Shown piece by piece: positions 15,555-56,960 of a stretch of DNA of 64,000 nucleotides. Within the stretch, counting starts at the first letter, position 1. Each line of letters begins with the position of its first letter. Source of the stretch: Octopus sinensis (Eukaryota); contig NC_043017.1 in NCBI RefSeq assembly GCF_006345805.1, positions 992,001-1,056,000 on the forward strand. Direction: 5' to 3'. The position numbers and the translations under genes are program-made. A model generated the notes under the pieces. That model did not search any database and had not been told where the DNA came from. It saw only the letters and a program-made list of their open reading frames with translations.

Positions 15555-15640
<86 letters not shown>

Positions 15641-15717
15641 TACATATTTTAAATTCAGTGCTCGTATTAATATTTCTCCGAATAATATTAATACGAGCAC
15701 TGAATTTAAAATATGTA

Positions 15718-15769
<52 letters not shown>

Positions 15770-15803: not shown

Positions 15804-16026
15804 GTATCAACATTACCACACATAGCTTGAACTACGTGAGTATGCACACACACAAACACACACGCACACACAAACGCACACATTCATACGCACAGTTCAC
15901 ACAATTCAAAAGAGCCCGCCATTTACATAAATGTATGATGGGTAAACATTTCCATATACTACAATGACGGCGACGGTTGTCCGCCAGGTATGATGTTTTT
16001 GTTTATTTATGATATATTTTGGATTC

Positions 16027-16090
16027 GCTTCACTGATGAGCAAGGGACGTGTATAATGCGTTAATTGCGAAATCACAGGTGATATGGAGC
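16027..16090 (+). ncRNA. type I hammerhead ribozyme motif (complete core, three stems)
   Basis: GCUUCA-CUGAUGA-GCAA..UUGC-GAAA-UCAC-AG-GUGA-UA-UGGAGC; stem I GCUUCA/UGGAGC, stem II GCAA/UUGC extended by GACGUGU/AUGCGUU, stem III AUCAC/GUGAU, NUH triplet AUA. Confidence 0.8.
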
Positions 16091-16272
16091 TAAATTCTGT
16101 TTTTAAGTGACTCGTTTTGAGAATTGCATCTGGTACAATTTGTTTATATTTGGTAGTTATGACTTTAAGAGTCCCTCCTAACGTGTGGCATTTATGTGTA
16201 ATAATGCCCTCTATACAATATAAATATCTATTTATCTATATATCTATCTGTCTATCTATCTATCTATCTATA

Positions 16273-16313
<41 letters not shown>

Positions 16314-17563
16314 GTCTGTCTAACTATCTATCTATTTATCTATCTATCTGTCTGTCTGTCTATCTAGGTCGCTAGCTACCTTTCTACCTTTATACGGACT
16401 GTCTCTCTCTCAAAAATACACACACGTACATATGTTGGCATGTGTCTTAGTGCCTGGGATTCTGTGTGCGAGATCCTAGCAGCGATAAAAGTTAAAGAAA
16501 ATCTCTTTAAAATAATACACTACTCCCTGTGCTGTGATGGAGGGCGACCAAAGTAGTTTTGTATACTTTAAGAAAGGCGAGAGTGGGATATAAATTCAAC
16601 CACATCGTTTTTTGAGAAAAGAGAGCCGAAGTAGGCCTGTATATTTAAAAAAAATCAGGTCTGATTAGTCGAATCTTTCCCTAAAATATAACGAAATCCC
16701 TTTGCAATCATACCGTACAGTTTACTGTATCCACCCGCAAAAAACTATAACCAAGGGATCAGCGATCGAATTCTGACGCAATCAAAAATGAAATCTGTTT
16801 CAAACCACCCGAACAGTTTTTGAAGAAACGACAGTGAAACTATATTATGCACTTTTAAAAAGGTGCAGCGTGACACATTAAATTCCTTTGATGATAAGTA
16901 ACCTCAATAACACTGTCCTTGACCCTAGCAAAGAACAAATGAATGCATAACACAAAAAGAAAAGAAACAACAAAAGTAATTCCCAAATTCAGGGAAATTG
17001 AATTACATGTAACATTTACTAGATTCAAATTAATTCTTATATATATTCTTACATATATTGGCTATTTACTGCAATGTTATTGCCGTTGTATTATTACGTA
17101 TTACTGATCAAACATTTAGTTTTTCCGATATTTAGTCATATTTCGTTAAAAGCAGATGTAGTCTACCGACATTTCTCCAAGAATAATATGCTATTCCTGA
17201 CCTTTATCAAGCGCAATATCTTTATCAGGAATATTACTTCTGTCCATTTTTCTTTCTAAATCGTTTGAAACATTGTTAGTACATTCACTAACAGAATATT
17301 TCCAACACAATAAAGATATCGCAGAATCAAATTTAGAATTGGCCAGAAGCCAAGTGAAACCATACAGAAATGTTACTTATTAAGACTCAGTACACATCGT
17401 TGGCATTTGGTGTGAGAAGAGTAATATTTAAAATGTATAATTTATCTTTTTAATGCTCTCTACTTCTGCACGGGAGACGTCACAATATGCATATATATCT
17501 ATGTGTATGTATGTATGTGTCCAAATGAATGTATATGTGTGTATGTATGTGTGTATGTACATG

Positions 17564-20971: not shown

Positions 20972-22065
20972 CAGGGTCTCGCAGATAAATTGAGACCAAT
21001 TTTAAGCAGTTGATTTAGTGGGTTTAACATTCTATTTATTGATAAATCTTTGCTTGCCCGAGAATTTAATCCTCCTCTTTATATTTTAGGTAAATAAGGA
21101 ACTGATTCGACAACAGAAAGTTATAGAACAACAGAATCGTTCCGCCTGTGTTGCTTTGGTTCGCACCGGACACTGCTAATAAAATTGTTGACAAAACTTG
21201 CAAAAGCAACAGTCGTGTGTATAAAGAATTTAAAGAAGAGGGAAAGATTGATAGAAAGGATCACAAGACTCAGAGTGATTCCAAGTTTCTCGCTGGCCTC
21301 AAATGTTCGATTGAAGCGGACCCATCAACATCCAGAGAATTGTTGCAAGGAAAGGCAATGTTTCCCTTTTTACAGTGATCAGAGCTGCAATCAAGAACAC
21401 TGGCATGACTAGCTATGTTCGACGAAGCTGTCGCCTCCTTACAGCCAATGCCAAAGCAATCGGGAACCTACGGTGTCCTGAAGCTTCTGTCATTCATCCA
21501 ACATCAAGTTACAGGAAAATCTCACGTGTTGGTGGATGAGACATTCGCTGTGGACGCTGAGGTGAATCGCAGAAATTCTCCAGTGAGTGCATACAACCAT
21601 TCTGACGTCTCGCACTATGCTGGAGGCTCAGCATCATGCCCCTGTGGTGGTATTTGGAGCAGTGACAAGTGATGGAAGTGTCATGGATCCATACTACATT
21701 GACTCTGGTTTGAAGATCGGTTCAAAGGAGTATCTGGACATCATGAAGAACTCTCTCTTACCTTATATGCAGTAGACGTTTGGGTTAGACAGTGTGGTGA
21801 TTATCCAGGATTCTGTACCATGCCATGGATCAAAAGCAATACAAACCTTCTATGGTGAGAAGGTGCCGTTTTTTAATGTGGAGGACGAAATCTGGCGTAG
21901 TAGTAGCCCAGGTCTCAACTCTCTCGGTTACATTTTATGGGATGTACTTCAAGTAAGTTTCAAAGCATCACAACACAAGAGTATTAATAGGGCAACGCGT
22001 AAGATCAAAATGGCAGCGAAAGCAGCAGCTTCAAAAAAGTTCCTTCTCATCTGGAGATAGTAATT
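20972..22065 (+). mobile_element. Tc1/mariner (maT/DD37D-like) transposon, decayed, with left TIR
   Basis: TA+cagggtctcgcagataaattgagacc end; frameshifted motifs LVDETFAVDAEVNRRNS, VVVFGAVTSDG, QDSVPCHGSK and WRSSSPGLNSLGYILW, with about 38 residues between the second D and the third catalytic position. Confidence 0.85.
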
Positions 22066-32449: not shown

Positions 32450-33342
32450 AGATCACGGGTATTTTTGACGCTTCCTTCTTTTTGTTTTTAATCAAGGTTC
32501 TAAGGCCGCAAAAGCTGCTCGCGACATTTGTGCTATGTATGGAGAGGGTGCCATAGCGGAAAGAAGCGCTCGTGATTGGTATGCAAGTTCAAAAATCTTT
32601 TGACCTCAAAAAACACAGCGTTTTATGGCCGTCTAGTTGAGTTCGATGAAAAGCGATTAAACAAACTGTTGCACGAAAATTCATGTCAAACGACCAGGGA
32701 ACTGGAAGAGGAAATGGAATGCTCTCACACTACTGTAGAGAAGTATCTTCACTCGATGAGAAAGGTTCAAAAGCATGGAGCATGGGTTCAGCATGCTTTA
32801 AGTCACAACAAAAATCAACGAGCCACAATCACAGCTGGTTTGCTTGCTCGACACCGCTCAACTCATGGACACAAGCTACGATTACTTTACCGAATCGTTA
32901 CTGGCGACGGAAAATGGTGCCTGTACACCAAGAGAAAAGACCTAATCGGCTGCATGGAGTTCTTCTACTGCACAACTACGTCCGCCCTCATATCACCAAT
33001 ATGACCAAGGAAGCCATTCAAACCCATGGATGGGAAGTGCTGCCACAACCACCGTACTGTCCTGATTTGGCACCAACGGATTTCCACCGCTTTCGATCTC
33101 TTTCAAATGCTATGCGCAGAGTTCGTTTCAGTACTGATGCAGAATTGAGAGCTTGATTGGATCAAGTTTTTGAGTCGAAATCAGGTGATTTCTACCAACG
33201 ATGTATTGAAAATCTCGTTGAACGTTGGGAAGAAGTTGTAAACAACAAGGGTGAATACATTATTGATTAGTTAGTTGTTATTTTTATTAAACGTTTTAAA
33301 ATCTAAATTTAAAAAACGGCGGGAACTTAGTTGCCAACGTAA
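32450..33342 (+). mobile_element. mariner (DD34D-type) transposase pseudogene with right TIR, internally deleted
   Basis: HTH region FNQGSKAAKAARDICAMYGEGAIAERSARDWY; RIVTGDGKWCLY; LLHNYVRPH; WEVLPQPPYCPDLAPTDFH; end aaaaaacggcgggaacttagttgccaacgtaa+TA. Confidence 0.9.
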
Positions 33343-35049: not shown

Positions 35050-35970
35050 TTACCAATTTCAAATGGAAATCTAGCTTCTTCTATATCATACCCGAAGTTC
35101 ACAAAACTGAAAAAAAGAAGCGAGTCATGTAAGGAGACACTGACGTATAGAGTAAGTTTCACTCACCTTACGATCTAAGATTAAGACCTATCATAGCTGC
35201 TTCGGCATACGAAACTTATCACGAGAGTAATTTTTAGATTTGCTACTTCAGCCATTTTTCATTCGCATACTAATTATCATAATAAATGATTGAGATATGC
35301 TCAAACATCTCTCCAGGAAGGATGAGAGAAAACTTATAGAGTATATTTCGTTGCAGTGAATTTCTATTAAAACATCCATTACGATTTAGGATAAGAAGCC
35401 ATTAAGTTCTGGTTACATAATTATACAAGTGAAAAACCGCGTCACTAAAAGAAAGACTTTATAACGGGGGAAAAAGTTAGAGAATGAATATTTTACACTG
35501 AAAAGGAGAGATTTTTCGACACAAATATGGAATTATGATGAGTACGAACTAGATTAGAATATCTCGTTACCTAGAGATCACTCCGTATTAAAAAAAGACA
35601 AAAAATTGAGAACTAGCAAAACTCTTTCTCTACATATAAATACAAGAACATTTGAGAAGTTATTTCGTTCTAAGGAAGGAATTCCTATAGAAACTAAAAC
35701 GATTGGAGCCAGTTCGTATTGAAATTGGCAATATTCAATTTGCCATGGAATATAACTGTAAACCAGTCCCAATTTTAGACATACTTATGAAGAATGATAG
35801 CATCCAACTGGAGTTGGACATTTACTATAAACCTACAGGCTCAACACAATATCTTCCATTCAATTCTTGCCATCCGTGTCATCCTAAAATGAAAGCCCTT
35901 TATAACCCAGCCAACAGAATCTGTACAGCTGCATCTGATACAAAGATCCGTGACGAAACAGTCTTCTAGA
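35050..35970 (+). mobile_element. Penelope-like element reverse transcriptase remnant
   Basis: FYIIPEVHK (FYGLPKIHK-like), LRLRPIIA, and the thumb region IQFAMEY..PILDIL..DIYYKPTGSTQYLPFNSCHPCHPK..YNPANRICT, typical of PLE RTs; many stops and frameshifts. Confidence 0.85.
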
Positions 35971-56133: not shown

Positions 56134-56960
56134 TTCAGTAGTTTTATTTTTATAGCGTGCTTTCACTTCACTACCGAGCGCAGCTCTGTGTGCCTGGGTA
56201 TGTGCTGTGATTTGTTGTGATGCTCTGATGATATTGTATGGAAAGTGTTCTGCGTAGAGGTGTCAGTGTGCCTAGTAGTGCAATTTTCTGTATGTTATAG
56301 TGTGTTGTAAGTCCTGGTGTTTCTGTTATGTATTTGTCTGAATTTTTTATCATGCCTAATGCACCTACTAAGATAGGAATTGTTTCGTTTTCAGATTCCA
56401 CATTCTAGTTACCTCTATTTTCAGGTCTTTGTATTTTGAGAGTTTCTCAATTTCTTTTAGAGACACGTTGTCATCTGCCAGTATTGATACATCAATTAGA
56501 AAGCATTTTTTTCTTCATGATCTCTGACAACTATATCTGGTCTGTTGGCCTTAATTTCTCTATCTGTGTGTATCGGCATATCCCAGAGTATGGTTGTTTT
56601 CTCGCTTTCTGTGATCTTTTCTGGTGTGTGCCTATACCATCTTTTTCTGTTGTTATTCCATAATGTTGGCATTACTTCCAATGTATGTAGGTTCCAACTC
56701 TGTCATGTCTGTGAATATATTCCTTCTTAGCCAGGACTGGGCAGCTAGAGATAATATGATTAATTGTTTCTTGTTCATCTCCACATATTCTGCAGTTACT
56801 TGTAATATTTCTTTTCATTACATGTTTTTGGTAATTTCTGGTGGGGAGGCTTTGGTCTTGTGCTGCATTAAAAATCCCTCTGTTTCTGCTTTGAGTCCTG
56901 AGCTTCTCAACCATTGCTGGGATTTTCTTTGTCTATTTCTTTTGCGTTTAGTTTAGTGCA
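56134..56960 (-). mobile_element. R4/Dong-like non-LTR retrotransposon 3' fragment (CCHC knuckle plus restriction-like endonuclease)
   Basis: AAQDQSLPTRNY..CRICGDEQETINHIISSC..RHDRV; ILWDMPIHTDREIKANRPDIVV; TIPILVGALG; IQKIALLGT; embedded in (ATT)n. Confidence 0.9.

Follow-up and report, generated by a model that had tools for sequence, protein, structure and literature searches.

The hammerhead motif at positions 16027 to 16090 of the window, the 64,000-nt stretch of Octopus sinensis DNA analysed here (GCF_006345805.1, NC_043017.1 positions 992,001-1,056,000, forward strand), very probably belongs to a copy, truncated at its 5' end, of a non-coding retrozyme built of tandem 460-495-bp units, which the reverse transcriptase (RT) and endonuclease of a Penelope-like element (PLE) are likely to copy. 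The features of the family as a whole are the better finding, and the locus itself, which from its sequence looks like one ordinary truncated copy rather than a domesticated ribozyme, matters little.

Structure of the hammerhead motif

The motif comprises the following features, all on the forward strand:

16027..16090 (+): type I hammerhead ribozyme motif, helices I to III; from sequence, descriptor and covariation in 40 relatives
16033..16039 (+): core CUGAUGA; position 7 (16037) is private to this copy, close relatives having A
16040..16068 (+): helix II, 4 bp, internal loop and 7 bp; C>T at the CpG sites 16050 and 16057 changes G-C to G-U
16069..16084 (+): GAAA core, palindromic helix III (16072-16083) and AUA cleavage triplet; from sequence
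16021..16097 (+): distal extension of helix I beyond an internal loop (16021-24/16094-97); 86% of cells paired in 40 relatives

An initial sequence-only reading of the window had described this motif, and its structural account was largely borne out. The core reads directly off the sequence in register (CUGAUGA at 16033-39, GAAA at 16069-72, U16083 and A16084), as do helix I (GCUUCA/UGGAGC, 16027-32/16085-90, with its distal extension) and helix II, in which a GG/AA mismatch separates the 4-bp and 7-bp segments. The type I topology was correctly assigned, given the core and helices in register and a descriptor match, as was the predicted cut between 16084 and 16085. The same reading suspected that the last pair of helix III is open, and this is correct: a 2-nt loop is impossible, so that helix III must close a CAGG tetraloop with the pairs AUCA/UGAU. 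A type I descriptor with minima of at least 5 bp in helix I, at least 3 in helix II and at least 2 in helix III matched once across both strands of the 64-kb window and in none of 200 dinucleotide-shuffled windows. The type I hammerhead motif is real. It is also, as first noted, the only hammerhead in the window, and there is no second copy in the 10 kb flanking the window on each side. The Rfam scan that had been proposed as a check gave no support, as the hammerhead models were unmatched by the motif both at the gathering score and at E values up to 10; this is a miss of the library and not a defining biochemical feature. Several G-U pairs had been taken to favour the forward-strand RNA; two of these, at 16050 and 16057, are private mutations of the window copy.

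Fold prediction was less clear. The stability of a 101-nt stretch folded alone was not unusual relative to shuffles (z -1.4), the best predicted fold of the window copy mispairs the core, with the active fold 3.8 kcal/mol higher, and the predicted pairing probability of helix III is at most 0.01. Nearest-neighbour energies leave out the tertiary contacts of the hammerhead core, and the gap between active and best fold ranges from 0 to 8.6 kcal/mol across the 40 relatives, so fold prediction neither shows nor excludes activity. The helix III 12-mer is predicted to form a self-dimer (-11.2 kcal/mol) and no hairpin on its own, and on this model the palindromic helix III could pair two copies with each other. 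Cleavage of the window hammerhead as a monomer is plausible from its sequence.

A high-copy non-coding repeat family

The motif had been described as lying in apparently non-repetitive sequence, which does not hold: the interval 15900-16230 is repeated genome-wide. A search with these 331 bases returned 2,186 candidates in the 2.72-Gb genome, 40 of which, when scored, gave 48 matches at 83-100% identity. The copy-number check suggested by the sequence-only reading therefore found a high copy number, one half of what that reading had said would reduce the motif to a mobile-element relic, and the motif sits inside a high-copy mobile unit. The link that the reading drew to PLEs and retrozymes was upheld. 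Exact-pattern counts, which are whole-genome totals, gave 37 matches with the helix I start of the window's subfamily, 690 related hammerheads (760 with a widened pattern that includes the 690), 1,147 hammerheads of the youngest subfamily by a disjoint pattern, and 1,615 occurrences of a 28-mer located close to the unit's 3' end, with no matches to the reversed control in any case. Contigs of runs under three organism labels also contain the family, hammerhead included, but none of them spanned the junction between the window copy and its flank.

Comparison of a natural unit, derived from L007, with 30 loci showed a circularly permuted 475-bp sequence present as 0.7-1.5 units, often with an additional inverted piece. 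Across subfamilies, units are 460-495 bp long and mutually 71-87% alike. No conserved ORF or coding body accompanied the unit in the mapped loci, and the unit lacks the ORF with RT and GIY-YIG that characterises an autonomous PLE. Units have 32-33% GC, and three of them folded as circles were 2 to 4 SD better than crude shuffles. In animals, non-LTR retrozymes are made up of type I hammerhead repeats arranged in tandem (Cervera and de la Pena 2020, PMC7229834; bioRxiv 2026.07.22.740005), and the octopus family likewise consists of a dispersed, non-coding tandem unit of low GC with one type I hammerhead each. By those features that can be tested in sequence, the family qualifies as a non-LTR retrozyme of the animal type.

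The subfamily that is both youngest and most numerous (L177, L194, L168) makes the long arrays; its helix II has a basal U-U mismatch and its helix III is one base shorter. A weaker ribozyme in this subfamily may favour multimers; an axolotl retrozyme with a similar U-U mismatch is described in PMC7229834.

Two further hammerhead repeat families were observed in the genome: one of approximately 290 bp (L222-L241; 752 candidates), which has a near-identical helix III, is otherwise unrelated in sequence and showed no link to the retrozyme unit, and one of approximately 419 bp (L130). Through this common palindrome, hammerheads from different families might pair with one another.

The window copy

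The features of the copy in the window are as follows:

15845..15901 (strand not assigned): CA-rich tract at the 5' junction; from sequence
15902..16225 (+): 5'-truncated single-arm copy of 324 bp, about two-thirds of a retrozyme unit of about 475 bp; from repeat mapping
15985..15993 (+): splice-donor-like CAG/GTATGA within the element; A at 15986 is private, relatives having T
16226..16365 (+): (TATC)n / TA-rich microsatellite at the 3' end of the copy, the likely insertion target

The window copy is 95% identical to its closest copies and ends, at its 3' side, at what is termed the 'short' end of the family below, merging into the microsatellite at 16221-16233. A target-site duplication was not discerned in the microsatellite and CA-rich flanks. 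When the copy was compared with the commonest letter among 16 close copies over 321 bases, there were 11 private changes, 3 of them within the 64 bases of the ribozyme and 8 within the 257 bases outside it, and among the 16 close copies the mean change was 3.6% inside the ribozyme and 3.1% outside. The three ribozyme changes are one at the free core position 7 (16037) and the two C>T changes at CpG sites, by whose decay the G-C pairs at 16050 and 16057 are now G-U. The window copy thus shows no sign of selection and, on this sequence comparison, is likely decaying neutrally.

These observations bear on the initial suggestion of a single-copy ribozyme, possibly domesticated as an intronic or regulatory element of a host gene, which is now exceedingly improbable for a 5'-truncated copy of a high-copy unit decaying equally inside and outside the ribozyme. 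The copy does retain all core bases and helix pairs intact despite a divergence of approximately 5% from its relatives; however, at 11 changes per 321 bases the 11 bases of the core usually escape change, with 12 of the 16 close copies having no core change and 4 having one or more, and the ribozyme of the window copy is not depleted of changes. The candidate splice donor that had been noted upstream belongs to the element itself, the CAG of the window copy having arisen through the private A at 15986, and showed no evidence of use. The window contained no recognisable host exon, although small exons or a long intron could escape notice, and a Pfam scan of eight window ORFs gave only one zf-RVT match and one match below the cut-off. 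Amniote intronic hammerheads are few, isolated and conserved across species. The octopus motif shares type I topology and a complete core with these ultraconserved ribozymes (cited in PMC7229834), but it belongs to a high-copy family, of which it is a young copy showing no trace of selection. Having a single hammerhead, the window copy cannot release a unit, and as judged from sequence would at most make one cut in a read-through transcript.

Conservation of the ribozyme at the family level

From the fetched loci, 78 distinct hammerheads were reduced to 48 at 95.5% identity, of which 40 were aligned; the eight dropped were L005, L057 and one row of L177, whose helix I appeared cut or rearranged, the second rows of L027 and L130, both rows of L142, and the unrelated L078. 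Across the 40 hammerheads, 93% of 893 cells were paired, as against 30-41% in slid controls, and both sides changed in 13 of 23 pairs, including 6 of 6 in helix I and 6 of 9 in helix II. Because the search pattern itself specified the core and helix III, their invariance does not count as evidence, and relatedness inflates the shuffle control, so the weight rests on the slid control and on helix I. RNAalifold, run on the gappy alignment, recovered helix I together with a wrong 3-pair helix. The covariation of helices I and II across subfamilies indicates that the ribozyme is kept by the replication of the element itself.

Anatomy of insertions

Insertion architecture was sampled on contig C1, where the first 100 matches listed for the 28-mer correspond to 51 loci and 86 arms, mostly of the youngest subfamily and not that of the window. 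A proper 3' end was present in 81 arms, lying approximately 142 nt past the cleavage site in 40 of them and approximately 269 nt past it in the other 41, such that the family has two fixed 3' ends, 'short' and 'long', about 127 nt apart. A (TA)n tract adjoined the arm end in 78 of these 81 arms. Of the 51 loci, 22 were single-arm, 27 were head-to-head and 2 were of other form, and a short end was paired with a long end in all 27 of the head-to-head loci, for which the chance expectation is 0.5^27. The family therefore presents the pattern of PLE mobilisation, with partial tandems, an inverted 5'-truncated arm, a one-sided tail and microsatellite targets: PLEs are described as inserting at (TA)n, with a truncated copy in inverse orientation and a tail of 30-40 bp on one side (PMC8557442), and this tail corresponds to the interval that separates two internal RT start sites (PMC11167929). 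We infer that each DNA end in the retrozyme family would use a different start site.

More than one unit was present in 25 of the 81 arms and more than two in 10, the longest array being L177 with 8+7 units. In a comparison of 28 units, the median number of substitutions was 2 within an arm, 2 between the arms of one insertion and 11 between insertions, and 14 columns were fixed within, and differed between, three arrays. This homogeneity is consistent with a circular template, or with linear multimers that were themselves homogeneous. Growth of the arrays in place, as satellite DNA expanding by unequal crossover or slippage with no circular RNA, would likewise leave the units of one array almost identical and has been proposed as a route (bioRxiv 2026.07.22.740005). 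As an account of the array step only, this is very unlikely here, as in L177 (8+7), L168 and L194 both opposed arms are multimeric, have their variants in common and terminate at the two fixed ends, as expected if the arrays were made at insertion.

The proposed cycle, in which a PLE-type enzyme copies the retrozyme, would begin with transcription of a tandem locus. Hammerheads, acting as monomers or as dimers through the helix III palindrome, would cut the transcript into unit-length RNAs and some uncut multimers, and the units would probably be ligated into circles. A PLE protein would then cut both strands of a TA-rich target and reverse transcription would be primed internally, with one DNA end for each start site. 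Each cDNA could extend over anything from a fraction of a lap to several laps, and both cDNAs would be joined head to head or only one of them kept. The window copy would be a one-arm product, primed at the short site, of 320 nt. Homogeneous arrays could instead stem from linear transcripts of arrays that were already homogeneous.

Truncations near the cleavage site

Truncations were counted only after the ascertainment motif, and the peak bin was noticed in the data and then tested. Stops within 20 nt past the cleavage site occurred in 13 of 90 passes, compared with 64 of 1,669 bin-passes elsewhere (p 9e-5; p 0.002 corrected for 24 bins), with a hazard ratio of approximately 4 when one arm per insertion was used. 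In the 100 nt before the cleavage site there were 7 stops in 374, and in the 80 nt following the peak there were 26 in 423, against which four downstream bins the peak gave p 0.01; the bin 41-60 nt downstream of the cleavage site was also raised (11/104). Two of the 13 stops were exactly at the cleavage site and the others were 3-16 nt downstream, while 77 of the 90 passes crossed the site.

A tentative explanation, possible though rather doubtful, is that the family records hammerhead-cut, circularised RNA as the template of a PLE-type enzyme in vivo, with two start sites 127 nt apart, rolling-circle copying to 15 units and stops preferentially at the 5' ends made by the ribozyme. Stalling of the enzyme at helix I would yield a similar peak, and in vitro hammerhead cleavage is described as dispensable for PLE insertion, with no RNA ends at the site (PMC11167929). 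If the circular-template explanation is true, the anatomy of insertions names the machinery that mobilises animal retrozymes, and PLE-associated hammerheads gain a demonstrable role.

Search for a PLE partner

Two intact PLE families were identified, here termed Hydra-like and Neptune-like on the basis of motifs rather than trees. The Hydra-like locus L091 has an intact 727-aa ORF with an RWK motif and a CxCX5C-like linker as in the Hydra clade, for which the Pfam scan gave no match. The Neptune-like locus L116 has a 784-aa ORF with RVT_1, DKG, a CxxxxCxxC linker and a GIY-YIG match just below the cut-off. Both families carry small hammerheads of their own and have a pair of 3' ends that precede (TA)n, spaced 70 nt apart in the Hydra-like family and 34 nt apart in the Neptune-like one.

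The Hydra-like family (L091:3372-5552, G000:C2) is young; its ORFs of 727 aa are intact, its hammerhead is minimal and its tail measures 70 nt, and its two-arm copies likewise pair a short with a long end. The minimal hammerhead of the Neptune-like family (L116:5385-5430, G000:C3) has a palindromic CCGG helix III and U3-A8 instead of C3-G8, a replacement known from other hammerhead variants.

No sequence is common to the retrozyme unit and either intact PLE family. Older Hydra-like loci showed no link to the unit, neither the 29 taken with flanks of 1.5 kb nor the 20 of these searched again with 7.5-8.5 kb, and near 49 PLE-coding loci unit similarity was limited to short matches at E values of about 0.01 or worse. 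These results bear on whether the unit is a detached pseudo-LTR of an autonomous PLE family still in the genome, its copies being truncated full-length elements. The PLE-type ends, tail and (TA)n targets of the unit would agree with such an origin, as would the homology of frog retrozymes to PLE pseudo-LTRs (bioRxiv 2026.07.22.740005) and locus L025, at which the unit adjoins an old PLE RT remnant head to head. However, in 80 mapped loci a full unit was preceded by the end of the unit itself, by an inverted arm or by flank unrelated to it, and the loci had no coding body in common, and the RT remnant at L025 differs by approximately 20% from its nearest fetched relatives, against 5% for the retrozyme arm, so that the two look to be of different ages. 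L025 was accordingly set aside as a candidate chimeric insertion. Descent from a PLE family still present is thus unlikely, and an ancient origin of the unit from a pseudo-LTR is possible.

Comparison with known systems

The octopus family, read as a retrozyme moved by a PLE, shares with published animal non-LTR retrozymes (PMC7229834; PMC7761336; Li, Clavereau and Pollet 2026, bioRxiv 10.64898/2026.07.22.740005) non-coding tandem units with a full type I hammerhead each, low GC, a range from monomers to long multimers, a self-paired unit and the presence of PLEs in the genome. Its units of 460-495 bp compare with 150-450 bp in PMC7229834 and fall within the 51-972 bp of bioRxiv 2026.07.22.740005. 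RNA circles and cleavage have been demonstrated for published retrozymes; for the octopus family they are predicted steps of the proposed cycle. The main texts of PMC7229834 and bioRxiv 2026.07.22.740005 do not mention octopus, and a term search of retrozyme main texts did not find two ends, head-to-head arms or microsatellite targets. The family appears unreported in the literature searched, and may be annotated in Repbase, subscription journals or preprint supplements, which lay outside that search.

With the endonuclease-bearing PLEs (Hydra, Neptune and Poseidon; PMC8557442, PMC11167929), the family has in common partial tandems, an inverted 5'-truncated arm, a tail at one end, two internal starts, (TA)n targets and a hammerhead upstream of the 3' ends. 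Unlike these elements, the retrozyme unit has no ORF and carries a full rather than a minimal hammerhead, and its tail is about 127 nt long, compared with 30-40 nt in published PLEs and 70 and 34 nt in the two intact octopus families. Non-autonomous Chlamys elements such as MRC1 (PMC8557442) also parasitise PLEs without coding for protein, have pseudo-LTRs and insert as several copies arranged head to tail. They differ in being algal, in a 3' end that resembles that of the autonomous partner, no partner similarity having been found for the octopus unit, and, for most of them as described there, in having no canonical hammerheads. In the relevant passages of PMC7229834 and PMC7761336, an autonomous element moving animal retrozymes is only suggested, and PMC8557442 describes the role of hammerhead cleavage in PLE-type transposition as unclear. 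The octopus family, which is large and young, bears on both points, through the exceptionless two-start pattern in 27 two-arm insertions and the excess of truncations at the cleavage site.

Other features in the window

Transposase-like remnants were recognised by eye, without Pfam support, at 21100-22060 (+) and 32576-33153 (+), as was a fragment resembling a Neptune-like RT at 35691-35966 (+), and a mobile-element fragment with a zf-RVT match lies at 56675-56932 (-). At 15590-15768, 130 bp upstream of the element, there is a near-perfect 179-bp palindrome with (GATA)n arms, a unique core that occurs once in the genome and a 9-nt spacer, representing either a local fold-back duplication or an assembly artefact.
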